DNA of 61,763 nucleotides from an uncultured Planctomycetales bacterium (GTDB lineage Bacteria; Omnitrophota; Gorgyraeia; Aquiviventales; Aquiviventaceae), in NCBI GenBank assembly GCA_964372775.1, contig CAYJRJ010000002.1, positions 1 to 61,763 on the forward strand. Reading direction: 5' to 3'. Both the position numbers and the translations under genes were made by a program. Shown in pieces: positions 2,475-61,310 of this stretch. The notes beneath the pieces were generated by a model. That model saw only the letters and a list, made by a program, of their open reading frames with translations. It was not told where the DNA came from and made no database searches. The stretch's first letter is position 1. Each line of letters starts with the position of its first letter.

Positions 2475-3359
2475 ATGGCTTCATCGACGACTCGGGTTGG
2501 ATTTCTCGGTCTGGGCATCATGGGCAGCGCGATGGCGACGAACCTCGCGAGGGCCGGATTCCCGCTCCTCGTCTGGAACCGGACGCCGGCCAAGGCGGAA
2601 CCACTCCTCAAAGTCGGCGCTAAGGCCGGCAAGAGTCCGGCCCATGTCGCGGCAGAGGCCGACATCGTCATTACCATGGTGTCTCAACCGAAGGATGTGG
2701 AGGAAGTTGTCCTGGGACCGAGTGGGGCGTTGGAGGGTATCAAGTCCGGCTCGGTGCTGATCGACATGAGCACCGTCTCTCCGGCGACCTCACGCAAACT
2801 CGCGGGTGCGGTGACGACCAAACAGGTCGAATTTCTCGACGCGCCCGTCGTCGGATCGAAAGGGCCGGCCACCGAAGGCGCGCTCGTGATCCTCGTTGGA
2901 GGGTTGCCGACGACGCTGGAACGCTGCCGGCCGATCCTGACGGCGATGGGCAAGACCATCATTCACGCCGGTGGCGTCGGGATGGGCTCGGCGCTGAAGC
3001 TGGCGACAAACCTGATGCTAGCACACTTGGCCGCGGGATTTTCCGAGGGGTTGCTTCTCGTGCAGCGCGCCGGCATCGATCCCAAGCGCTACCTAGAAGT
3101 GCTCGAAGCGAGCACCTTTCGCTCGCCGTGGTTTCAGACCAAAGGTGTGGGCATGATCAAACGCGATTTCTCAACCCACTTTGCGCTCAAGCACATGCGC
3201 AAGGACTTGCGACTCGTGAACGAGTTGAGCCAAGAACTCAGCCTGTCGTTGCCCATTACCATCGCGATCGAACAGCTCTTTGCTCAGTCCGAGGCCGCAG
3301 GCAAGAGCGAGCTCGATTACTCCGCCATTCTCGCCCAGCTCGAACCGCAGCCCGTCTGA
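2475..3359 (+). CDS. NAD(P)-dependent beta-hydroxyacid dehydrogenase family oxidoreductase (3-hydroxyisobutyrate / glyoxylate-succinic semialdehyde reductase-like)
   Basis: N-terminal Rossmann motif VGFLGLGIMGSAMATNL. Also DAPVVGSKGPA, and a length of 294 aa typical of the family. Confidence 0.85.
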   Translation: MASSTTRVGFLGLGIMGSAMATNLARAGFPLLVWNRTPAKAEPLLKVGAKAGKSPAHVAAEADIVITMVSQPKDVEEVVLGPSGALEGIKSGSVLIDMSTVSPATSRKLAGAVTTKQVEFLDAPVVGSKGPATEGALVILVGGLPTTLERCRPILTAMGKTIIHAGGVGMGSALKLATNLMLAHLAAGFSEGLLLVQRAGIDPKRYLEVLEASTFRSPWFQTKGVGMIKRDFSTHFALKHMRKDLRLVNELSQELSLSLPITIAIEQLFAQSEAAGKSELDYSAILAQLEPQPV

Positions 3360-6127
3360 TGGCCCGCCGCGACACGCATCAGGAAAAACTCGCGCCGCTG
3401 CGCCGCGATGTCCACTTTGTCGGTGAGCTGCTCGGGCAGGTCCTCATCCAGCAGGAAGGCCGAGCCTTTTTCGACATCGAAGAGCGGATCCGTAAGCTCG
3501 CCATCCGCGCGCGCCGGGCAGGCGCTGGCCGCGGCGATGCCCAGCTGCGTCGGCTCTTGGCGCACCTGCCGCTGGCCACCGCAGAGAAGATCATCCGCGC
3601 CTTCTCGGTCTACTTCCAGCTCGTCAACCTCGCTGAGGAAACGCACCGGTTGCGCCGCAAACGCCACTACGAGACGCTGCCCGGCTTCCATCCCCAACGC
3701 GGCTCCATCGAAGACGTGGTCCACCGCCTGGCCCAGGCGCGCATCTCCTATGAGACGCTGGCGAAACGCACGGCTGACGTGTCGATTACGCTCGTGCTAA
3801 CTGCGCATCCGACCCAAGCGCTCCCCCCGACGGTGCTGATGAAGCACCGGGCGATCTGGGAGCTGCTCATGAAGCGCCAGCTCCTCAATCCGTCCCCCAA
3901 GGAAGAGCAGGCGATCACCCGCGAGCTGCTCGAGCAGATCATGAGCCTGTGGCAGACGGATGAGCTGCGCACAAGCCGCCCCACCATCCAGGATGAAGTT
4001 GAGCAAGGGCTCTACTATCTGTCGACCGTGCTCTACGACGCGCTCGCTGAGGTCGTCATGGCGTTTCGCACCGACGTGGAGCGAGTCTATGGCCGGACCT
4101 TGCCCCTGCATCCTCTGGTGCGCGGCGGCAGCTGGATCGGCGGCGACAAGGACGGCAATCCCAATGTCACCCATGAGTCGCTGCGCTGGGCGCTGTTGCG
4201 CTACCGGCAGGCGATTCTAGAGAACTATCTCGGCTCGCTGGACCGGCTGCACGAGCATTTGACCCACTCGGATCAGCTCTGCCGCATGCTGCCCGCGTTC
4301 ATGCGCTCGCTCGCGAATGACCGGCGCAGCTTCCCGGCGCTGGTGGAATCGCTGGACCAGCGGTTCCCGCATCAGCCGTACCGGCAGAAGCTGGCACTCA
4401 TGAGCCACCGGCTGCGCCAGCTCCTGCGCTATCCGGCGGAAGGGGAAGGCGGCTACTCCAGTGTGGAGGAGTTCCTCCATGATGTGCAGCTGCTCCAGCG
4501 CAGCCTGCTGGCCCATCGCGCCGAGCCGATCGCCAACCATGACGTGGCGAAGCTGTGCCTGCAGATCTCGCTGTTCGGGTTCGCCTTCGCTCGGCTCGAC
4601 GTGCGCGACCATAGTCAACGCCACGTGGCGGCATTTGCTGAACTGGTCCGGCTCCATGAGCTTTCGCCGCAGGACCCGATGGCGATACCTCAGGCCCAGC
4701 GGCGCGAGCTCCTCGACCAGTTGCTCAGCCAGCCGCGCTACATCGAGCTGCTCAAGGGATGCTCGCCCGACACCCGGGAGGTGGTGCGCACCTTTCAGGT
4801 GATGGCGCAGCATCTCGATGACGTGGACCCGGAGGCGATCGACGGCTACATCATCAGCATGACGCGCAGTGCTAGCGATGTGCTGACCGTCCTGTGGTTT
4901 TTCCAGCAGGCGGACCTGTTCCGCCGCACGACTCGAGGCTGGTGGAGTGGGGCGAACATCATCCCGCTGTTCGAGGGGATCGAGGATCTGCGCAACGCCC
5001 CCGGCATCATGGAGGAGCTCTACCGGCACCCCGTCTATCAGCAGTACCTGCGCGCCCGTGAAGGCCGGCAGCAGATTCAGCTCGGCTACTCCGATTCCAA
5101 CAAGGACGGAGGATTTTTTACCGCGAACTGGGAGCTGTATCAGGCGCAGCGCCGACTGCATGCGGTGGCCAAGCGGCATCGCGTTGATCTCCAGCTGTTC
5201 CACGGCCGCGGCGGGGCCATCGGCCGCGGCGGAGGGCCGCTGCATCAAGCCATCCTGGCGCAGCCGCGCGGCACCCTCGAGGGTCGCATCAAAATCACCG
5301 AGCAGGGTGAGGTGATTGCCGCGAAATACTCCACGCCCATGCTGGCATTGCGCAACCTGGAGCTGGTGCTCTCGGCGGTGCTCGAGGCATCACTCATCGC
5401 CCCGAAGCTGCCGGCGCACCTTGCGGCATGGGAAGAGGCGATGGAGGAGCTCTCGCGCTTAGCCTACCAGCGATACCGGCAGGCCGTGTACGAGGACGAA
5501 TCGTTCATCCGCTATTTCGAGCAGGCGACGCCGATCGATGCCATCAGCGAATTTCGGATCGGCTCGCGGCCGGCGCGCCGCAGCGCCTCCCGACGCATCG
5601 AGGATTTGCGGGCGATTCCGTGGGTCTTCAGCTGGGTGCAGAGCCGGCAACTGTTGCCGAGCTGGTTTCCGTTCGGCTTGGCCGTGGAGCAATTCACCCG
5701 ATCGCACTCGGGAGGGCTCGACGCGCTGCGGCAGATGTACGCGGGCTTTCCGTGGTTTCACGTGATGGTCGAGTTCATTCAGATGAGCATGGGAATGGCG
5801 GATCTGCGCATCGCGCGGCAGTACGCGTCGCTGGTAAGGCCATCGGCGCTGGGCCGGCGGATCTTCGGTCTGCTGGAAGAAGAGTTCCATCGCTCGCGCC
5901 GAGCGGTCATGGCGATTACGCAGCAGCGAGAGCTGTTGGACTCCAACTATGTCCTCCAGAACGCCATCCGGCTGCGCAATCCTTATGTGGATCCCATCAG
6001 CCTGCTGCAGGTGCGGTTCTTGCAGGAGCGGCGGCAGGCAAGGGGATCGCAAGAGCGTAAACGGCTCGAGCGGCCCCTGGCGCTGACCATCAACGGCATC
6101 GCCGCCGGCATGCGACATACTGGATGA
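3359..6127 (+). CDS. ppc: phosphoenolpyruvate carboxylase
   Basis: VLTAHPTQ, GRGGAIGRGGGP and the C-terminal INGIAAGMRHTG signatures are present. ATG 3359 overlaps the upstream stop (TGATG). The longer ORF-track start at 3128 overlaps the previous gene. Confidence 0.93.
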   Translation: MARRDTHQEKLAPLRRDVHFVGELLGQVLIQQEGRAFFDIEERIRKLAIRARRAGAGRGDAQLRRLLAHLPLATAEKIIRAFSVYFQLVNLAEETHRLRRKRHYETLPGFHPQRGSIEDVVHRLAQARISYETLAKRTADVSITLVLTAHPTQALPPTVLMKHRAIWELLMKRQLLNPSPKEEQAITRELLEQIMSLWQTDELRTSRPTIQDEVEQGLYYLSTVLYDALAEVVMAFRTDVERVYGRTLPLHPLVRGGSWIGGDKDGNPNVTHESLRWALLRYRQAILENYLGSLDRLHEHLTHSDQLCRMLPAFMRSLANDRRSFPALVESLDQRFPHQPYRQKLALMSHRLRQLLRYPAEGEGGYSSVEEFLHDVQLLQRSLLAHRAEPIANHDVAKLCLQISLFGFAFARLDVRDHSQRHVAAFAELVRLHELSPQDPMAIPQAQRRELLDQLLSQPRYIELLKGCSPDTREVVRTFQVMAQHLDDVDPEAIDGYIISMTRSASDVLTVLWFFQQADLFRRTTRGWWSGANIIPLFEGIEDLRNAPGIMEELYRHPVYQQYLRAREGRQQIQLGYSDSNKDGGFFTANWELYQAQRRLHAVAKRHRVDLQLFHGRGGAIGRGGGPLHQAILAQPRGTLEGRIKITEQGEVIAAKYSTPMLALRNLELVLSAVLEASLIAPKLPAHLAAWEEAMEELSRLAYQRYRQAVYEDESFIRYFEQATPIDAISEFRIGSRPARRSASRRIEDLRAIPWVFSWVQSRQLLPSWFPFGLAVEQFTRSHSGGLDALRQMYAGFPWFHVMVEFIQMSMGMADLRIARQYASLVRPSALGRRIFGLLEEEFHRSRRAVMAITQQRELLDSNYVLQNAIRLRNPYVDPISLLQVRFLQERRQARGSQERKRLERPLALTINGIAAGMRHTG

Positions 6128-43564: not shown

Positions 43565-43855
43565 ATGCCGACGTACGAATACCAGTGTCAGAAGTGCAAA
43601 AAACGCCACGAGGCGTTTCAGTCCATCACCGCGCGGTCGCTGACCAAATGCCCCACGTGCGGCGGCCGGCTCAAGCGGGGGCTTGGCAGCGGCTCAGGCT
43701 TTCTGTTTAAGGGCGGCGGCTTCTACATCACCGACTATCGGAGCAAAAAGTATCTCGACGCCAAGAAGAAAGATCAACCGAGTGCCTCCAAACCCTCCTC
43801 CGCATCATCCGGCAGCGGGGGAACCTCAAGCTCCTCCGGCAGCGCTGCGAATTAG
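43565..43855 (+). CDS. FmdB-family zinc-ribbon protein
   Basis: MPTYEYQCQKCKKRHE...KCPTCGG is the TIGR02605-type CxxC...CxxC ribbon. Confidence 0.85.
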   Translation: MPTYEYQCQKCKKRHEAFQSITARSLTKCPTCGGRLKRGLGSGSGFLFKGGGFYITDYRSKKYLDAKKKDQPSASKPSSASSGSGGTSSSSGSAAN

Positions 43856-43892
43856 CTCACGCTCGTCGTTCCCGCGTCGCTGGTGGACCCTC

Positions 43893-44222
43893 GTGGGCGC
43901 CTACGCCGCGCTGGTGCTGGCACTCTCGGTGCTCCCCGGCGATGTGGGGCCCAAGATCCCTCACCTTGACAAGGTGCTGCATCTTTGCGAGTATGCTCTC
44001 TTCGCGTGGTTGTTGACCCGGGCCATCCGCGCTACCGCAAGCCCCCCGCACGCGAGCTCCTACGTCCTTTGGGCCTGGCTGTATGCCACGAGCTACGGGT
44101 TATTGATGGAGGTCATTCAGCGTCTGGTGCCGTGGCGCTCGGCTGACCTGATGGACGCCGTCATGAATACGCTGGGAGCGGCGCTCGGCGCGAGAATCGG
44201 CAGAAAAGGGCGAAGACGATGA
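43893..44222 (+). CDS. VanZ-like membrane protein
   Basis: DKVLHLCEYALFAWLL and SADLMDAVMNTLGAALG are VanZ-like. The start is uncertain. GTG 43893 was chosen to avoid overlap with the FmdB gene. Confidence 0.6.
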   Translation: MGAYAALVLALSVLPGDVGPKIPHLDKVLHLCEYALFAWLLTRAIRATASPPHASSYVLWAWLYATSYGLLMEVIQRLVPWRSADLMDAVMNTLGAALGARIGRKGRRR

Positions 44223-44345
44223 AGCACCAAATTCCAAATCCCAAATTCCAAATAAATTCCAAGCGCCAAGCACCAAACGCACGGTGTTTGAAATTTGGAA
44301 CTTGGTGCTTGTTTGGTGCTTTGGATTTGGTGCTTGGAATTTGAA
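44222..44345. repeat. long heptamer-periodic hairpin (TTCCAAA/CACCAAG family), 'empty' copy
   Basis: aagcacc aaattcc aaatccc aaattcc aaataaattcc aagcgcc aagcacc aaacgc -acgg- tgtttga aatttgg aacttgg tgcttgt ttggtgc tttggat ttggtgc ttggaat ttgaa. Confidence 0.85.
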
Positions 44346-44361: not shown

Positions 44362-45003
44362 ATGTCAAAGAGATGGCAGCTGCTGGTCACGGAATTTACG
44401 CATCATCTGCCCTATACGATCGTCGGATCGCTCATCGCGATGGCGGCGGTCTGGTGGTATGGCACACAGCAATTGAGCCGCGGTGATTCGGCGGTGTTGT
44501 TCGAGCAGTCCCGCTCCGCCTTTCACCTGTTTCACCCCCTGCACATCTGCCTGAGCGCGATTGCGACCACCTCGCTCTTCTGGCGCCATGAGCGCCACGT
44601 TGTGCGCGGCATCGTCGTCGGAGCGCTGGGCACGATCATCCCGTGCGGGCTGAGCGATTACGTCTTCCCCTATATCGGGGGGCTGCTCATGGGCCAACCG
44701 ATGGATCTGCATGTCTGCATCGTGGATCATCCGCAGCTCTTCTTTCCGTTCCTGGCGCTCGGCATCATCGGCGGTTTCTGGGCCGAGGAGCGGCTGACCG
44801 GCAGCCACCTGTTCTCCCACGGCGCGCACGTGTTCGTCAGTAGCGCGGCGTCGCTGTTGTATCTCATCTCTTTCGGGTTTACGAGTTGGATGTCGGATGT
44901 GCGGCTGGTGTTTCCGGCGTTTCTGATCATCGTGCTCGCCGTGTGGATCCCCTGCTGTGTCAGCGACATCGTCGTCCCGACGGCGGCCGCGCACTCCCAT
45001 TGA
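44362..45003 (+). CDS. polytopic membrane protein with conserved His/Cys positions, family not recognised
   Basis: About 6 hydrophobic helices. HHLPYT, HPLHICLS, CGLSD, HVCIVDHP and CCVSD hint at metal binding. Confidence 0.5.
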   Translation: MSKRWQLLVTEFTHHLPYTIVGSLIAMAAVWWYGTQQLSRGDSAVLFEQSRSAFHLFHPLHICLSAIATTSLFWRHERHVVRGIVVGALGTIIPCGLSDYVFPYIGGLLMGQPMDLHVCIVDHPQLFFPFLALGIIGGFWAEERLTGSHLFSHGAHVFVSSAASLLYLISFGFTSWMSDVRLVFPAFLIIVLAVWIPCCVSDIVVPTAAAHSH

Positions 45004-55016: not shown

Positions 55017-56327
55017 ATGGATATTAGTGTCGTCGGCGCGGGCCATGTCGGGTTGGTGACCGGCGCGTGCTTTGCGGACTTGGGCCACCAGGTCGTCGTG
55101 GTGGACAACGACGCCAAGCGGATTACCAACCTCAAGCGCGCCGTCATGCCGTACTACGAGCCGGGGCTGGAGGAGCTGGTCGAGCGCGGCGTCAAAGAGC
55201 GCCGGCTCTCCTTCACCACGTCGCTCAAGGAAGGGGTCGACAAATCCACCATCATCTTTATCGCGGTGGGCACCCCGCAAAAGGCGACCGGCGAGGCCGA
55301 GCTGGCGTACGTGGAGAGCGTCGCGCGCTCCATCGCCGAGCATCTGCCCGGCTACCGGCTGATCGTCGAGAAATCGACCGTGCCTGTGCAGACCGGCCTG
55401 TGGATCGAGCACACCATCAAGACCTACCTGAAGAACAAGCATCCCTTTGACGTGGCATCCAACCCCGAGTTTTTGCGCGAAGGCACCGCGATTCAGGATT
55501 TCATGAAACCGGACCGCGTGGTGCTCGGCGTGCAGTCCAAGCGGGCCGGCGATCTGCTCAAAACGCTCTACAAGCCGCTGGGGGCACCCATCGTCCTGAC
55601 CGACATCGCCAGCGCTGAGCTCATCAAGCACGCCTCCAACTCGTTTCTCTCGATGAAGATCTCCTTCATCAACGCCGTCGCACAGATCTGCGAGCGCTGC
55701 GGCGCGGACGTCGAGCAGGTGGCCGAGGGCATGGGGTTGGATCCCCGGATCGGCCGCTCGTTCTTGAACGCCGGCGTCGGATATGGGGGCTACTGCTTTC
55801 CCAAAGACCTCGATGCGTTCATCCATATCGCGGAGCAGTTAGGCTACGACTACGAGCTACTCAAGGCGGTGCGCAGCATCAACGAGCACCAGAAGCGCAG
55901 CTTCGTGGAGAAAGTCCGCAAGGCGTTGTGGGTGGTGAAAGGTAAGACCATCGGGGTGCTTGGGCTCTCCTTCAAACCCAATACCGACGATATGCGTTTC
56001 GCCCCTGCGCTCGATATCATCGAATATCTGCAGGGAGAGGGTGCCACGATCAAGGCGTTCGATCCCCAGGCGATGAAGGAAGCCGAGCACCTGCTGCCCA
56101 AGGTGAAGATGTGCAAGGACCCCTACGAGGTGGCCCGCGGCGCCGATTGTCTGGCGGTCTTGACGGAGTGGAACGAGTTCAAGGAGCTGGACTTCAAGCG
56201 GATCAAAAAGCTCATGCGCCAGCCGCTAATCGTGGATGGACGCAACGTCTACGACCCGAAGCGCGTGCGCGCGCTCGGCTTTCGCTATCTCAGCATGGGG
56301 CGCCAGCGCACCGAAGAGAGGACGTGA
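55017..56327 (+). CDS. ugd: UDP-glucose 6-dehydrogenase
   Basis: VVGAGHVGLVTG, the catalytic GGYCFPKD and a length of 436 aa. Confidence 0.92.
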   Translation: MDISVVGAGHVGLVTGACFADLGHQVVVVDNDAKRITNLKRAVMPYYEPGLEELVERGVKERRLSFTTSLKEGVDKSTIIFIAVGTPQKATGEAELAYVESVARSIAEHLPGYRLIVEKSTVPVQTGLWIEHTIKTYLKNKHPFDVASNPEFLREGTAIQDFMKPDRVVLGVQSKRAGDLLKTLYKPLGAPIVLTDIASAELIKHASNSFLSMKISFINAVAQICERCGADVEQVAEGMGLDPRIGRSFLNAGVGYGGYCFPKDLDAFIHIAEQLGYDYELLKAVRSINEHQKRSFVEKVRKALWVVKGKTIGVLGLSFKPNTDDMRFAPALDIIEYLQGEGATIKAFDPQAMKEAEHLLPKVKMCKDPYEVARGADCLAVLTEWNEFKELDFKRIKKLMRQPLIVDGRNVYDPKRVRALGFRYLSMGRQRTEERT

Positions 56328-56333
56328 GTCGCG

Positions 56334-57647
56334 ATGGGATCGCTGGGACAGCTCGCCAATCGGATTGAGCGTCGTCGGGCCAGCGTCGGGGTCATCGGGC
56401 TCGGCTACGTCGGGCTGCCGCTGGCGGTGGAATTTGCGCGCGAGGGCTTCCGGGTCACCGGTATCGATCTGGACCGCTCGCGCATCAAAGGGGTCAACCG
56501 CGCCCGCTCCTACATCGGCGATGTCTCCAGCGACGACCTGCGCACGATGCGCCAGGCGAAACGGCTCTCGGCCACCCGCTCCTTCGACGCGCTGGCCCGG
56601 CAGGATGCGATCATCATCTGCGTGCCCACCCCGCTGCGCAAGACCCGCGAGCCGGACATGTCCTACATCGTCTCGGCCACCAACGAGATCGCCAAGCGCG
56701 TGTGCCGCGGCCAGCTCATCGTGCTCGAAAGCACGACGTACCCCGGCACGACGGATGAAGTGATTCTGCCGGCGCTTGCGGCGCGCGGCCTGAAGGTGGG
56801 CCGCGACTTTTGCCTCGCGTTTTCACCGGAGCGCATCGACCCCGGCAATCCCACCTACACGACGCGCACGATTCCCAAAGTCATCGGCGGGGTCACGCCC
56901 CTGTGCACGCGGCTCGCCAACGCGCTCTACGGCAGCATCATCCACCGGACCGTGCCCGTCACCTCGACGAAAGCCGCCGAGATGGTCAAGCTGCTGGAAA
57001 ATACCTTCCGCGCGGTCAACATCGGCCTCGTCAACGAGATCGCCATCATCTGCAATCGGCTGGGCATCGACGTGTGGGAAGTGATCGATGCCGCGAAGAC
57101 CAAGCCCTTCGGCTTCATGCCGTTTTATCCGGGTCCTGGCATCGGAGGCCACTGTATTCCAAGCGACCCGGTGTACCTAGCGTGGAAGGTGCGCGTGCAC
57201 GGCTCTGAGGCGCGCTTCATCGAGCTGGCGACGCACATCAACGGGGCGATGCCCGAATACGTCGTCGAGAAGGTGGTGACGGCGCTCAACGAGCGACGCA
57301 AGTCGCTCAAGGGTTCCCGCGTGCTGCTGCTGGGGCTCGCGTACAAGAAGGACGTCAACGATCTGCGGGACTCGCCGGCGTTTGACGTGGCGCGGATTCT
57401 GCAAGAGCGCGGCGCGATCGTGGCGTATCATGACCCGCACGTGCCCAGCACGATGCTCAACGGGAGGCCGCAGCGCTCGGCGCCGCTGAGCCCCTCGACG
57501 CTGCGACGCTGCGCCTGCGTGGTGATCCTCACGAACCACTCGAAGGTGGACTACAGCTTGCTGCTGCGCCATGCCACGGTGATCGTCGATACGCGCAACC
57601 AGTACGGGTACCTCTCGCGGCCCTCGGCAAAGGTGGTGAAACTCTAA
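56334..57647 (+). CDS. UDP-N-acetyl-hexosamine 6-dehydrogenase (WbpA/WecC/TviB-like nucleotide-sugar dehydrogenase)
   Basis: GLGYVGLPLA, ERIDPGN and GGHCIPSDP are present. Exact substrate cannot be assigned from sequence alone. Confidence 0.85.
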   Translation: MGSLGQLANRIERRRASVGVIGLGYVGLPLAVEFAREGFRVTGIDLDRSRIKGVNRARSYIGDVSSDDLRTMRQAKRLSATRSFDALARQDAIIICVPTPLRKTREPDMSYIVSATNEIAKRVCRGQLIVLESTTYPGTTDEVILPALAARGLKVGRDFCLAFSPERIDPGNPTYTTRTIPKVIGGVTPLCTRLANALYGSIIHRTVPVTSTKAAEMVKLLENTFRAVNIGLVNEIAIICNRLGIDVWEVIDAAKTKPFGFMPFYPGPGIGGHCIPSDPVYLAWKVRVHGSEARFIELATHINGAMPEYVVEKVVTALNERRKSLKGSRVLLLGLAYKKDVNDLRDSPAFDVARILQERGAIVAYHDPHVPSTMLNGRPQRSAPLSPSTLRRCACVVILTNHSKVDYSLLLRHATVIVDTRNQYGYLSRPSAKVVKL

Positions 57648-58591
57648 TGGCACGCTACTTGGTGACAGGCGGGGCAGGGTTCATCGGCTCGCACGTCGTG
57701 GATCGGCTCGTCAGCGAAGGCCATCAGGTCCGCGTGCTCGACGATCTGTCCAGCGGCAAGCTCGAGAACCTCGCCGACGTGCGCTCCAAGGTCGAGTTCA
57801 TTCAAGCCGATCTGCGGGATCGCGCCGTTGTGACAAAAACCTGCGCAGGGATTGAGTGCATCATCCATGAAGCCGCCTGGCGTAGCGTGCCCAAGTCGAT
57901 GGCCGATCCGGTCGGCTACACCGACGTCAACGTCATGGGCACCGCCTACTTGCTCGATGCGGCGGTCCAAGCCAAGGTCAAGCGGATCGTAGCGATCTCC
58001 TCCAGCTCGGTCTACGGTGACACCGAGACCATGCCCCTGCGGGAAGACCAGCCCTGCCTGCCTATTTCGCCCTACGCAGCTTCTAAATTGCTCAATGAAG
58101 TCCAGTGCGGTCTCTACGCGCGCGCGTTCGGCCTGGAGACGGTGGCGGTGCGCTACTTCAACGTCTTCGGTCCCCGCCAGAGCCTCGAGAACCAGTACGC
58201 GGTCGTCGTGCCCAAGTTTATTGTCTGCCTCTTGCGCAAAGAGTCGCCGCCGGTCTATGGCGACGGCAAGCAGTCGCGCGACTTCACCTATGTCGACAAC
58301 GTGGTCGACGGCACCCTGCTGGCCGCGCGCGTGCCCGGGGTGAGCGGGGAGGTGTTCAACATTGCGCTCGGGGAAGAGCACACCGTGTTGGATTTGCTCA
58401 AAGAGATCAACGAGATCATGAAGTGCTCTGTCGCGCCGACATTCGAGCCGCCCCGCGCCGGCGACATGCGCCGCACGTTTGCCGACTCCTCCAAGGCCCA
58501 GCGCCTGCTCGGATGGAAGGGGAAGGTGAGTTTCTCCGAGGGCCTGCGCCGCACCGTCTCCTGGTTCCGTGAGCATCCTCCTAAGACGTAA
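57647..58591 (+). CDS. NAD-dependent nucleotide-sugar epimerase (SDR family, WbpP/TviC-like)
   Basis: GGAGFIGSH and catalytic YAASK are present. Its ATG overlaps the previous stop. Confidence 0.88.
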   Translation: MARYLVTGGAGFIGSHVVDRLVSEGHQVRVLDDLSSGKLENLADVRSKVEFIQADLRDRAVVTKTCAGIECIIHEAAWRSVPKSMADPVGYTDVNVMGTAYLLDAAVQAKVKRIVAISSSSVYGDTETMPLREDQPCLPISPYAASKLLNEVQCGLYARAFGLETVAVRYFNVFGPRQSLENQYAVVVPKFIVCLLRKESPPVYGDGKQSRDFTYVDNVVDGTLLAARVPGVSGEVFNIALGEEHTVLDLLKEINEIMKCSVAPTFEPPRAGDMRRTFADSSKAQRLLGWKGKVSFSEGLRRTVSWFREHPPKT

Positions 58592-58630
58592 ATTCCAAGC
58601 ACCAAGTTCCAAATTCCAAATAAGCACCAA
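58591..58630. repeat. left arm of TTCCAAA/CACCAAG-family inverted repeat flanking the four-helix-bundle gene
   Basis: aattcca agcacca agttcca aattcca aataagcaccaa. It runs into the ATG at 58630. Confidence 0.85.
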
Positions 58631-58995
58631 TGGCCAATATTCCAAACACAAGTCGTCGCTATGATCTTGAGGAGAGAACCCTTAGGTTCGCTCAAAACAC
58701 CATCAAACTATGCCAGTTATTACCTCAGCATGTCGTGAACCGTGAGCTTGTCAGTCAGCTTGTCCGAGCAAGCGGTTCGGTAGGCGCCAATTACCGAGAA
58801 GCAAACGAAGCTTTAAGCAAGAAAGACTTTGGACATCGCATCAAGATTGCGCGCAAGGAGGCGAAAGAGGCTTACTATTGGCTGCAGTTGCTGGAGGGAG
58901 CCAACCCGAGCACGAGCGACGAGACAACGAGGTTGCTTCAGGAGGCTCTTGAACTGAGAAAGATTTTGTCTACGATCGCTGATCGTGCTTCGTAG
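58630..58995 (+). CDS. four-helix-bundle protein of the '23S rRNA intervening sequence protein' family (TIGR02436-like)
   Basis: YDLEERTLRFA...I.L...LP........QL.RA..S...N..EA....SKKDF.....IA.KE..E..YWL.L pattern. It is visibly more AT-rich than its neighbours. Confidence 0.8.
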   Translation: MANIPNTSRRYDLEERTLRFAQNTIKLCQLLPQHVVNRELVSQLVRASGSVGANYREANEALSKKDFGHRIKIARKEAKEAYYWLQLLEGANPSTSDETTRLLQEALELRKILSTIADRAS

Positions 58996-59051
58996 TTTGG
59001 TGCTTGGTGCTTGGGGTTTATTTGGTGCTTGGGATTTGGTACTTGGGATTT
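58996..59051. repeat. right arm of the inverted repeat flanking the four-helix-bundle gene
   Basis: tttggtgcttggtgcttggggtttatttggtgcttgggatttggtacttgggattt. It is an imperfect complement of the left arm and of the 44222-44345 family. Confidence 0.85.
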
Positions 59052-59056
59052 AGCGA

Positions 59057-60178
59057 ATGCCGAACATCCCGCTGATTGATCTGCGCGCGCAATACCAATC
59101 CATCAAGAATGAAATCGACGCTGCCATCCAGCGCGTGCTCGATAGCGGCCAATTCGTTTTAGGTCCGGAAGTCGAAGCGCTCGAGCGGGAAATCGCCGCC
59201 TACTGCGGCACACAGCACGCGGTCGCCGTCGCCTCAGGCACGGACGCGCTCGAGCTCTCGCTGCGCGCCTGCGGGATCAAGCCAGGCGATGAGGTGCTCA
59301 CCACGGCCTACAGCTTTATCGCCACCGCCGAAGCCATCGTGGCGGTCGGCGCGCGGCCAGTCTTTGTCGACATTGAGCTAGCCACCTACAATCTTGATCC
59401 CGCGCAGCTCGAGGCCCGCATCACCCACAAGACTAAAGCCATCTTGCCCGTCCACCTCTACGGCCATCCCTGCGACCTGGACGCGGTGCTCAAGCTCGCC
59501 AAGACCCACAAACTCAAGGTGATCGAGGACTGCGCCCAGGCCATCGGCGCTCGCTATCGCGGCCGGCGCGTCGGCTCCTTCGGTGATGCGGCGGCGCTGA
59601 GCTTTTTTCCCAGCAAGAACCTCGGCGCCTACGGCGACGGCGGCATGGTCGTGACCAATGATCAGAAACTGGCGGAGCAGGTCAAACTCCTGCGCGTGCA
59701 CGGCAGCCGCCAGCGCTACCAGCATGAGGCGTTGGGCACTAACAGCCGGCTCGATGCGCTCCAGGCGGCCATCCTGCGCGTCAAGCTGCGCCATCTCGAC
59801 GCCTGGACGAAGACCCGCCGCGCCCATGCTAGCACCTACACCGAGCGGCTGACGCAGGCCAACATCCCCGGCCTCGTCCTGCCCCAGGAGCGCGAAGACT
59901 GCGAGCACGTCTATCACCTCTACTGCATCCGCGCCAAGCACCGCGACGAGCTTCAGCAGTCGCTGGCGAAGCAGGGCATCGCCACCCAGATCGCGTACCC
60001 CTCGCCGCTGCCCGTCCAACCCGCCCTCACCCCGTATCTCTCCGGCCGCCCTAGTTACCCCAACGCCGCCGCCGCCTCCCGCTCCATCCTCGCTCTCCCC
60101 CTGTACCCCGAATTGACTCCCGAGCTGATCGACACCATCACCCACGCCGTCGCTGACGCTCCAGCGATTCACGCGTGA
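59057..60178 (+). CDS. DegT/DnrJ/EryC1/StrS-family sugar aminotransferase (WbpE-like)
   Basis: GPEVEALEREIA, DALELSL and the PLP-Lys region SFFPSKNLGAYGDGG are present. Confidence 0.9.
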   Translation: MPNIPLIDLRAQYQSIKNEIDAAIQRVLDSGQFVLGPEVEALEREIAAYCGTQHAVAVASGTDALELSLRACGIKPGDEVLTTAYSFIATAEAIVAVGARPVFVDIELATYNLDPAQLEARITHKTKAILPVHLYGHPCDLDAVLKLAKTHKLKVIEDCAQAIGARYRGRRVGSFGDAAALSFFPSKNLGAYGDGGMVVTNDQKLAEQVKLLRVHGSRQRYQHEALGTNSRLDALQAAILRVKLRHLDAWTKTRRAHASTYTERLTQANIPGLVLPQEREDCEHVYHLYCIRAKHRDELQQSLAKQGIATQIAYPSPLPVQPALTPYLSGRPSYPNAAAASRSILALPLYPELTPELIDTITHAVADAPAIHA

Positions 60179-60196: not shown

Positions 60197-60218
60197 TATA
60201 TTATAGATGATATAATAT
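60197..60218 (+). promoter_or_regulatory. AT-rich inverted repeat (atattata-N5-tataatat) containing a TATAAT box
   Basis: tatattata-gatga-tataatat(g). TATAAT at 60211-60216 abuts ATG 60217, so transcription may start near the second ATG (60226), giving a leaderless mRNA. Confidence 0.4.
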
Positions 60219-60711
60219 GAGTACTATGACTTTCGGGGCGCTTGCAATCCCGGTCCGGCTGCTGCGCAAGACCAGAGGGCTGAGCCAAGTTGAGTTAGCT
60301 GCCCGAGCAGGGATCACGCAAGCGGCGGTCTCCGAGATTGAGCGCGGGGGGCGTCTGCCGACCCTGCGCACGCTGGGCCGACTCAGCCAAGCACTCGACG
60401 TCGCCCCGGCTATGCTCCTGGAGTCCTCTGAGCGGTCCTCGCCGTCACGCGAGGCCACCGACCGCATTGCACGGGCGATCCTCCGAGGGCAGCGCGCGCT
60501 TCCGCCAGACGAGCAGCGCCTGGCGGACGCTGTGGGGTCCCTGGTGATTCAGAAACTCCGGGCGCACGCAGCGCCGGGTGTGCGACGGTACAGCAGGGGG
60601 CGCTGGGAAGCGCCGTGGCGGCCGATCTGGGTGCGCCGCACGTATGGTGAGCGCACGGTGTCCCAGTTGTTGCGTCGACTTGAAGTACTGCTCGCGATAG
60701 GCGCCTTCTGA
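60217..60711 (+). CDS. XRE-family helix-turn-helix transcriptional regulator
   Basis: LRKTRGLSQVELAARAGITQAAVSEIERGGRLPTLRTLGRLSQAL is a canonical HTH_XRE. The C-terminal ~90 aa are unassigned. Confidence 0.85.
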   Translation: MSTMTFGALAIPVRLLRKTRGLSQVELAARAGITQAAVSEIERGGRLPTLRTLGRLSQALDVAPAMLLESSERSSPSREATDRIARAILRGQRALPPDEQRLADAVGSLVIQKLRAHAAPGVRRYSRGRWEAPWRPIWVRRTYGERTVSQLLRRLEVLLAIGAF

Positions 60712-61310
60712 TGCAAGAGGAACAATTACGACATTTTTTCAAGGAACTTGGCGAGGCGTGGCCCCACAAGACCACGGTCCTGGTCACCGGGGGCGCCGCG
60801 GCGTTGCTCCTCGGGGGGGCGCGGCCGACTGACGACGTGGATTTCGAGGTCCAGTTTCATACGAGAGGCGCATCGTGGGAGGGTTTTGCGATTGCGGTAC
60901 AACGGGTGTCCGAGTCCACAACGATCGGCGCGCAGTACGCGGAGTCCATCGACCGCTGGACGCAGGTCACCCTGTTGGATTATCGATCGCATACTCAACG
61001 GATTGGCCGGTTCGGCGCCATTGAGGTGCGCCTGCTCGACCCGATCTACTGGAGCATCGGCAAGGTGTCCCGGTACGAAGACCGGGATATCCAGGATCTC
61101 ATCGCGGTGTTCCGGCGTCATCAGCCTGATCCGGCCGCGGTGGCTCGCCTATGGCACCGCGCGCTCCGGAAGAGTCCCAAGTCCACCCAATTGCGCCTGA
61201 CCCTGGAACAGGCGTTACATTTCTTCCGGACGCACGGCAAGCGCATTTGGGGTCCCACGTTCTTGCTCGCCACCGTCGAAGCCATTCTCACCTCTGCTGC
61301 GCGAAAGTAG
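60711..61310 (+). CDS. minimal nucleotidyltransferase-fold protein (Pol-beta superfamily; DUF6036/AbiEii-like)
   Basis: VLVTGGAAALLLGGARPTDDVDFEV fits the hG[GS]-x9-13-DhD NTase signature. Its ATG overlaps the XRE stop (TGATG). Confidence 0.55.
   Translation: MQEEQLRHFFKELGEAWPHKTTVLVTGGAAALLLGGARPTDDVDFEVQFHTRGASWEGFAIAVQRVSESTTIGAQYAESIDRWTQVTLLDYRSHTQRIGRFGAIEVRLLDPIYWSIGKVSRYEDRDIQDLIAVFRRHQPDPAAVARLWHRALRKSPKSTQLRLTLEQALHFFRTHGKRIWGPTFLLATVEAILTSAARK

Follow-up and report, generated by a model that had tools for sequence, protein, structure and literature searches.

Intervening sequences (IVSs) that carry an open reading frame (ORF) are known from the 23S rRNA of Coxiella burnetii and Leptospira: a gene for a protein of the S23p (PF05635) family lies between terminal inverted repeats, which form a long stem. 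In Coxiella, the IVS (428-444 nt) occupies helix 45 and is closed by a terminal stem of 28 bp; it is poorer in GC than the genome, and the start of its S23p gene is immediately preceded by three to four copies of the heptamer GACAGAT in tandem. The stem is cut by RNase III in vitro at the first repeat, with the ends mapped (PMC4990558). Insertions in the 16S and 23S rRNA of the candidate phyla radiation (CPR) also carry such ORFs (23S_rRNA_IVP). In this study, we analyzed a 61,763-nt stretch of contig CAYJRJ010000002.1 (the window; coordinates are window positions unless a locus is named), in which a gene of this family was found inside a sugar-nucleotide operon. The segment 58589-59052 is best read as an IVS-type selfish cassette in an mRNA operon, whose ORF would form the loop of a long imperfect hairpin of heptamer arrays. 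The 23S rRNA IVS with an S23p ORF was known, and the IVS-type cassette outside rRNA appears to be new; the module of the Coxiella 23S IVS is identical in kind, and it is the host RNA that differs.

The window element and the ORF-bearing 23S IVS have in common the S23p/PF05635 protein, the terminal inverted repeats, and the long stem; as in Coxiella, there are tandem heptamers just ahead of the start codon. A GC content under that of the host, a sporadic and horizontally spread distribution, the lack of a promoter, and a position within host RNA are also shared with the rRNA IVS. On the other hand, the window element lies between two protein-coding genes in a polycistronic mRNA, and Rfam detected one tRNA only and no rRNA over the window. 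Its arms (approximately 49 nt) are degenerate, whereas the IVS stem is a near-perfect 28 bp; RNase III excision has been demonstrated for the rRNA IVS, whereas that of its window counterpart is predicted by analogy. The Coxiella S23p is apparently decaying, whereas the window protein is clearly under purifying selection. The features concerned are the following.

58589-58637, + strand: left arm, a G-poor array of NNNCCAA heptamers, whose first triplet is the epimerase stop TAA, with an AAATAA phase break inside
58630-58995, + strand: gene for the 121-aa four-helix-bundle protein (PF05635/TIGR02436, S23p/Avd-like), GC 50%, isoelectric point (pI) 9.4
58996-59052, + strand: right arm, a C-poor array of TTGGNNN heptamers that is the complement of the left arm and whose phase break, TTATTT, mirrors the one there
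57647-58591, + strand: NAD-dependent sugar-nucleotide epimerase/dehydratase, the upstream host gene (stop codon 58589-58591)
55017-56327 and 56334-57647, + strand: UDP-sugar dehydrogenases, the upstream co-directional run
59057-60178, + strand: DegT/DnrJ/EryC1 aminotransferase, the downstream host gene
44219-44345: hairpin without an ORF, made of the same type of heptamers, with an A/C-rich arm (44219-44283) and a T/G-rich arm (44284-44345)

The insert (approximately 464 bp) occupies the entire spacer between the epimerase and aminotransferase genes. The start codon (ATG 58630) lies inside the left-arm array, which extends into the first codons of the ORF, and no Shine-Dalgarno sequence was found there; the right arm begins directly after the stop codon of the four-helix-bundle gene and stops 4 nt short of the aminotransferase ATG (59057). 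An earlier note on this DNA had claimed that long imperfect inverted heptamer repeats bracket the ORF, and this proved correct: the arms 58589-58637 and 59004-59052, each of 49 nt, were 76% complementary and consisted of NNNCCAA and TTGGNNN units. The best inter-arm RNA duplex contained 58 pairs (-70.9 kcal/mol), with a longest uninterrupted run of 19 pairs, and the fold of 58570-59075 (506 nt) was better than those of all 100 shuffles (z = -4.3). The ORF-less hairpin at 44219-44345, in the spacer that separates a VanZ-like gene (43683-44222) from the following ORF of the same direction (44362-45003), had a short loop and a folding energy of -47.1 kcal/mol (z = -4.8). Using a detector of strand-asymmetric period-7 arrays, this repeat type was found in the window only at both sites and in a short unpaired run (1703-1739), and shuffled copies of the window gave no arrays of this type. 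Neither hairpin matched Rfam at the gathering score or at E <= 10; consensus scans revealed no sigma-70 promoter near either window hairpin, and no intrinsic terminator (a short GC-rich stem plus a T run) on the + strand at either of them. The run at 1703-1739 is a short A-rich sequence (AATCCAAAATCCAAAATCTAAAA) at the 3' end of the ORF 973-1731, which resembles the repeat family and has no inverted partner nearby. Furthermore, the predicted duplex reaches past the arrays: 58563-58570 (the epimerase end) pairs with 59059-59066 (the first aminotransferase codons). This pairing may be by chance; if real, the downstream start (ATG 59057) would be occluded until the stem was cut.

In agreement with the AT-richness described earlier, the GC content of the ORF 58630-58995 was 0.50, lower than in the window as a whole (0.63) and in the two flanking genes (0.63 and 0.65). 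The closest homologues of the aminotransferase suggest an Omnitrophota-like host. Two relatives (72 and 70% identity) keep the order dehydrogenase-epimerase-aminotransferase, and both are without the four-helix-bundle gene and the heptamers: one has a 55-nt spacer (L081/L082; L numbers designate the loci compared), and the genes overlap in the other (L084). Since gene and repeats are both missing from these syntenic relatives, the module is an insertion, and the comparison with relatives lacking it, which the earlier note had put forward, upholds its statement that the gene splits a contiguous epimerase-aminotransferase pair. The closest homologue of the four-helix-bundle protein (73% identity) is encoded between the HycI protease and TatA genes. 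These sequence comparisons indicate that the cassette of arms plus ORF, which is of foreign composition, is present or absent as one unit. It may be argued that the gene is instead an ordinary resident, namely an ancestral operon member, and that the repeats are unrelated slippage-prone or repetitive extragenic palindrome (REP)-type spacers: in many bacteria, simple heptamer repeats are frequent between genes (PMC4692102, PMC4679880, PMC2700814), and the arrays described here are stable between strains. However, this reading is contradicted by the syntenic relatives without gene and repeats, the GC content 13-15 points under that of the neighbours, the unrelated genes beside homologues everywhere, and the arms themselves (only two unrelated genes are array-bracketed in the 80 loci described below, and the inverted match is locus-specific), and we give it hardly any credence.

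To our knowledge, no function has been assigned to the S23p/four-helix-bundle family since the 1990s. Membership of the 121-aa protein, suggested in the earlier note, was established by hidden Markov model searches: 68.9 bits with PF05635 (E 5e-19; cutoff 33.8) and 85.1 bits with TIGR02436 (E 4e-24; cutoff 24). There was no other Pfam match to the protein, and no nuclease, recombinase or transposase domain. An AlphaFold2 model (a monomer, built on 20 homologues) consisted of four helices with a pLDDT (predicted local distance difference test) of 90.7, and residues 1-9, encoded by the array, were the sole part predicted to be disordered. The best structural matches in Foldseek were BT_0352 (2RLD, E 7e-6; E 1.7e-13 by phmmer) and Xcc0516 (2GSC, template modeling (TM) score 0.80-0.85), both belonging to the S23p family, followed by Avd, the accessory protein of diversity-generating retroelements (DGRs) (4DWL/8UB7, TM 0.69-0.78); the 2RLD, 2GSC and 4DWL entries each contain five chains. 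Thirty-seven columns were invariant among 20 homologues. Between the window gene and that of its closest homologue, the proportion of synonymous differences (pS) was 0.93 (saturated) and that of nonsynonymous differences (pN) 0.20, with identities of 0.75, 0.85 and 0.31 at the three codon positions. A saturated pS with a low pN shows that the gene is no relic: it encodes a functional protein, on which purifying selection is strong. The family comprises at least 7992 relatives at E <= 0.001, and no homologue was found among viral_contigs.

Avd is a pentameric basic barrel and binds an RNA stem-loop in the DGR RNA (bioRxiv 10.1101/2023.10.23.563531); PF05635 is described as Avd-like. The window protein has the four-helix-bundle fold in common with Avd (4DWL, 8UB7) and is likewise small and basic, but sequence identity is approximately 15%, and Avd genes have not been described inside heptamer hairpins. 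As Avd is an obligate cofactor of reverse transcriptase (RT) and a structural homologue of the window protein (TM ~0.7 to 4DWL/8UB7), one may imagine that the excised hairpin RNA is copied by an RT supplied in trans, with the four-helix-bundle protein as Avd-like cofactor as in DGRs, and that the cDNA is inserted into further rRNA helices or transcribed spacers. In favour of this, the element invariably lies within a host transcript, and the family is found in both rRNA and mRNA contexts. However, no RT gene, template repeat or variable repeat lies beside the window cassette, whose adjoining genes encode sugar enzymes (UDP-sugar dehydrogenases, epimerase and aminotransferase) and a helix-turn-helix (HTH) protein, and a search for DGR-type template/variable repeats found no long direct repeat pair around the gene. 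In addition, no RT-like family was among the 25 most frequent Pfam families of neighbours in the 80 loci, and no poly-A, truncated copies or other signatures of retro-copying were seen. This reading is wholly speculative, and we consider it very improbable.

To compare homologous loci, one genome per species was scanned, and among at least 552 relatives (encoding stretches in species-representative genomes), the best 80 loci were analyzed: these belong to Omnitrophota, Patescibacteria, Chloroflexota, Desulfobacterota, Planctomycetota, Nitrospirota and others. Nearly all of them have an A/C-rich period-7 array before the ATG and a T/G-rich array after the stop codon, with an identity of 0.48 at lag 7 and 0.42 at lag 14, versus approximately 0.30 at other lags. 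A strict array detector under-calls the arrays (48 and 38 of the 80 loci), and a k-mer test is the better estimate. Unit shuffles, cross-locus comparisons, and comparisons of direct with inverted matches were used as controls for the arms. When the right arm was reverse-complemented, it had a mean of 11.7 6-mers in common with the left arm, in contrast to 2.8 for the direct comparison and 6.2 for the cross-locus comparison (p = 4e-10); each locus thus has an inverted match of its own. The repeat units followed a mirrored order beyond unit shuffles (median z 1.75; z > 2 in 36 of 78 loci), and inter-arm duplexes of 20 bp or more were predicted in 90 of 92 loci (median 48). The heptamer core varies by lineage while the arms stay complementary: CCAA/TTGG, ACAA/TTGT, CTAA/TTAG and CGAA/TTCG. 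The inverted match was higher than the direct match in 70 of 83 loci; these inverted period-7 arrays, found on surveying other copies of the gene for flanking repeats in many phyla, strongly support the proposal of the earlier note that the gene travels with hairpin elements in general, beyond rRNA.

The array is in register with the ATG and runs approximately 24 nt into the ORF, which therefore has a variable and disordered N-terminus, and a GGA-type Shine-Dalgarno sequence is absent in 69 of 77 loci. Paralogues with less than 40% identity are bracketed likewise (L018 4587-4964; L015 1155-1586), whereas, family paralogues apart, such bracketing was found for only two of several hundred other genes in the 80 loci. 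In some cassettes, the 3' array is far longer than the 5' array and consists of two or three blocks (L097-L102, approximately 150 nt downstream; L091-L096), so that the arms are not always symmetrical. Small GC-rich palindromes (e.g. CCGCCAAAGCGCTCTGGCGG) are nested in AT-rich hairpin loops (L121, L125, L138) or in right arms of cassettes (L031, L044, L066), as if the heptamer hairpins were insertion targets of a second small type of element. The loop of the L107 hairpin contains a block of other short repeats (GTTTAAG/GTTGAAT units). Many close homologues were found on contigs of 0.5-1.5 kb, from which it seems that assembly of short reads often stops at the repeats beside the gene.

A tblastn search of plasmids gave 30 records, mostly from Nostocales, and 15 loci from cultured organisms (cyanobacteria, Bacteroidota and Chloroflexota) were read, 12 of which have inverted arrays. 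The heptamers in these loci bear no relation to the window repeats: GTCGGAG/CTCCGAC in Nostoc punctiforme; AATCCCC and AATCGTA versus CGATTTA and GGATTTG in Planktothrix; GATGAAG/CTTCATC in Chlorohelix; AATTCGT/TTACGAA, as four perfect units abutting the ORF, in Nostoc flagelliforme and Dolichospermum; TTTTAGA/TCTAAAA in Gloeocapsa; CCAGTGA/TCACTGG (13 units) in Euhalothece; and AATTCAA/TTGAATT as a further pair among the cultured strains. The number of repeats per arm is 4 in several cyanobacteria, approximately 6-7 in the window, and 13 in Euhalothece, and paralogues within the single genome of N. flagelliforme carry different heptamers. Since period 7 and inverted symmetry are conserved while the sequence is free, the constraint is one of structure, not of sequence. 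The arms of the N. flagelliforme (pNFSY06, 161.8 kb) and Dolichospermum flos-aquae (pAfl69, 29.1 kb) cassettes are perfect over 28-35 bp, and culturable cyanobacteria such as these and N. punctiforme (pNPUN01, 162.6-163.1 kb) make the question directly testable.

An invariable period of 7 with a repeat sequence that changes by lineage may also be attributed to a regulator that binds the repeats: an oligomeric protein would bind 7-nt RNA repeats, autoregulate its translation, and control a regulon of ORF-less hairpins, the hairpin being the operator. The start codon within the array without a Shine-Dalgarno sequence, the basic protein (pI 9.4), the pentameric barrels formed by homologues, the binding of a specific RNA stem-loop by Avd, and the repeat type shared by gene-bearing and ORF-less units of one genome are all consistent with this. 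However, the variation from 4 to 13 repeats per arm led us to reject a rule of one repeat per pentamer subunit; different heptamers serve the paralogues of one N. flagelliforme genome, and the neighbours are without the common function expected of a regulon. We regard a regulator as improbable, although less so than retro-mobility.

Of 77 upstream neighbours, 72 are co-directional with the gene (background at these loci: 75%; p = 3e-5), as are 61 of 74 downstream neighbours; the median distance from the upstream stop codon to the ATG is 66 nt, which equals the length of the arm. Among 133 neighbouring proteins with 174 Pfam families, no family occurs in more than four proteins, and there is therefore no functional linkage to the neighbours; a functional link was rejected by the same lack of enrichment. 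The operons split by the cassette include those of AIR synthase, permeases, tRNA synthetases, pilus genes and glycosyltransferases.

The favoured reading of the cassette at 58589-59052 proceeds from this setting. The cassette would be transcribed by read-through from the sugar-nucleotide operon, the upstream co-directional genes being the presumed source; on the operon transcript the arms would pair into a duplex of approximately 50 bp; and RNase III would cut this duplex, as shown for the homologous 23S rRNA IVS. The cut would release a monocistronic four-helix-bundle RNA and part the epimerase and aminotransferase cistrons, and ORF-less hairpins would be non-autonomous or decayed relatives, as shown at one locus and inferred elsewhere. 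Such processing is proposed to make insertion into operon spacers or rRNA helices tolerable. For the pairing of the arms, the cut, the release of the cassette RNA and the separation of the flanking cistrons, we consider the case, drawn from the rRNA analogy, to be evenly balanced. Hairpins cut by RNase III between cistrons are found in the early mRNA of phage T7 and in rRNA operon spacers, where cleavage gives separate mature RNAs. These resemble the window element as long intercistronic duplexes in a polycistronic transcript, but enclose rRNA or nothing, have no repeat arrays, and are immobile, while cleavage at the window is hypothetical.

Several points weigh against this mechanism. RNase III cleavage of the mRNA stem is inferred purely by analogy. 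Mismatches between the arms in 77 loci comprised 154 G.U and 140 A.C (p = 0.45), together with 661 of the transversion type; as there is no G.U excess, the sequences give no sign of selection on an RNA stem over a DNA-level palindrome. The sense duplex was modestly more stable than the antisense duplex (46 versus 31 loci, p = 0.008). Several registers of pairing between the window arms are about equally good, and mainly direct arrays surround the gene in three of the 15 cultured loci (Bernardetia, Treponema and Pseudanabaena). Pairing of the start codon with the 3' arm, considered from TTTTGGTCAT motifs, was rejected: the score was 9.2 of 14 for the own arm and 9.0 for foreign arms. The Coxiella S23p is probably not made in vivo, according to the authors (PMC4990558). 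With regard to mobility, no target-site duplication was recognised, and the relatives at 70-75% identity are too divergent for exact insertion boundaries. Recent mobility was not seen: identical proteins always have the same neighbours, on up to 16 contigs, and recent transposition was rejected on this ground. Array copy number was also invariant between strains and identical in 6+6 independent samples of two cassettes, by which phase variation through array copy number was rejected.

ORF-less hairpins, A-rich then T-rich, numbered 11 in the best 80 of at least 552 loci. A 15-mer common to both window sites (CCAAATTCCAAATAA) had 124 matches in metagenome contigs: 39 in ORF-less hairpins, 2 in gene-bearing units, and 22 in partnerless arrays, the remainder being 44 probable chance matches and 17 cut by the contig end. 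Adjacent arrays were A-rich then T-rich 36 times and in the reverse order 3 times. The 6-mers of ORF-less hairpins resembled those of gene-bearing arms more within their own genome (0.47) than in other genomes (0.25, p = 0.01), and the window hairpin ranked 5th of 77 in such likeness. At L235 1980-2926 (GCA_004196315.1, SDBT01004351.1), two ORF-less hairpins precede a gene-bearing cassette in a tandem 207-nt register. In both of them, the left arm with the ATG and approximately 10 codons (MPITKHSFDLE) is joined straight to the stop codon and the right arm; they are therefore, unambiguously, internal-deletion derivatives. Decay from a gene-bearing unit is documented once, in L235; none of 51 other ORF-less hairpins, that at 44219-44345 included, has an ORF remnant, and the generalisation that all ORF-less hairpins are deletion derivatives is unsupported. 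Of the two parts of the earlier description of 44222-44345, the short-loop hairpin of the same family was confirmed, whereas its reading as an 'empty site' is possible but uncertain, and in view of the L235 units may have the direction reversed. Locus L036 has ORF-less hairpins (4373-4471 and 5156-5287) in successive spacers between three co-directional genes, a REP-like distribution less than 2.5 kb from a gene-bearing cassette. Both share their first 40 bases, 9 of which lie outside the array (TACACGAAC).

These hairpins bear most directly on a mobile element at the DNA level: the arrays would extrude a hairpin or cruciform as substrate for copying or insertion, the four-helix-bundle protein would be the sole trans factor, and gene-bearing units would be autonomous, whereas the far commoner ORF-less hairpins would be a non-autonomous form like REP elements or miniature inverted-repeat transposable elements (MITEs). 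ORF-less units outnumber gene-bearing ones (39 versus 2) among the CCAAATTCCAAATAA matches and share the repeat type of the cassette in the same genome; those of L235 derive from a gene-bearing unit and were amplified in tandem, and those of L036 occupy successive intergenic spacers. The arm mismatches without RNA-type bias, the patchy occurrence across phyla, and the closest homologues in unrelated operons also fit. However, the protein has no nuclease, recombinase or transposase domain, and its characterised homologue is an RNA-binding cofactor; neither a target-site duplication nor identical copies in different contexts were found; and co-orientation with the upstream gene is not predicted, though selection for expression could yield it. 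Similar considerations apply to the comparison with MITEs and with REP/REPIN (REP doublet) sequences and their REP-associated tyrosine transposase (RAYT): short intergenic palindromes outnumber the gene-carrying unit, internal-deletion derivatives occur (L235), and hairpins lie between co-directional genes as REP elements do (L036). In contrast to MITEs and REPINs, the sole protein is without a transposase or nuclease fold, the arms are tandem heptamers and not a unique inverted repeat, and neither target-site duplication nor recent transposition is evident. A DNA-level element is in our opinion unlikely, although somewhat less so than a repeat-binding regulator, and the rival readings are not mutually exclusive.

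Unexplained dispersed heptamer arrays have been reported in Xanthomonas and Nostoc (PMC4692102) and in Beggiatoaceae, Microcystis and Bacteroidetes (PMC4679880), and paired heptamer arrays on opposite strands in Geobacter (PMC2700814). The arrays described here are similar tandem 7-nt intergenic units to those of the short tandemly repeated repetitive (STRR) type (cyanobacteria), GGGAATC (Xanthomonas), TAACTGA (Beggiatoaceae/Microcystis/Bacteroidetes) and MTYCTGA (Geobacter), which often lie just upstream of start codons and have a patchy phylogeny and no known function. Arrays of described kinds flank the cassettes of Planktothrix (AATCCCC) and Euhalothece (TCACTGG). The published reports treat heptamer arrays as simple repeats or regulator sites and mention neither an enclosed four-helix-bundle gene nor inverted pairing; a literature search found no link of heptamer arrays to PF05635 genes outside rRNA, and absence there is no proof of novelty.

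A gene as the loop of a heptamer-array hairpin, in rRNA or in an operon spacer, joins two puzzles: the S23p family and the heptamer arrays. Gene-bearing cassettes and ORF-less hairpins may, as a tentative and rather doubtful extension, form an unrecognised class of selfish hairpins across phyla, in which the Avd-like protein acts in trans on RNA or DNA hairpins, possibly with host RT or RNase III. If true, one system would lie behind rRNA intervening sequences and dispersed heptamer arrays (STRR, TAACTGA, GGGAATC and similar). Should RNase III cut these stems, an unannotated processing signal that uncouples neighbouring cistrons would be present in thousands of operons. If the protein acts on hairpins, it would define a mobile or regulatory element of a new kind, with a relationship to Avd, the DGR cofactor. 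In annotation, the four-helix-bundle genes of cassettes should not count as operon members, and the repeats cause assembly breaks.

Cassettes on cyanobacterial plasmids were repeatedly found inside defence loci: L085 1492-1839 and L224 392-748 (plasmids of Anabaena cylindrica and Nostoc sp. TCL26-01), L087, L090, L223, L228 and L231. Their contexts were between cas2 and cas1 (on the opposite strand), upstream of cas1, between DrmD and PglX, between a helicase and an N6-methylase, and between DUF1156 and a HEPN protein. In L010, the cassette (2986-3333) lies approximately 100 nt downstream of a tRNA-Val gene (2805-2877), and is therefore embedded in another kind of processed transcript. In the window, the aminotransferase is followed on its 3' side (region 60217-61310) by an XRE-type HTH protein (60217-60711) and an overlapping 199-aa ORF without a Pfam match, in place of which the relative L083 has an AbiEii toxin-antitoxin-like pair; the end of the operon downstream of the aminotransferase appears to be a variable region.

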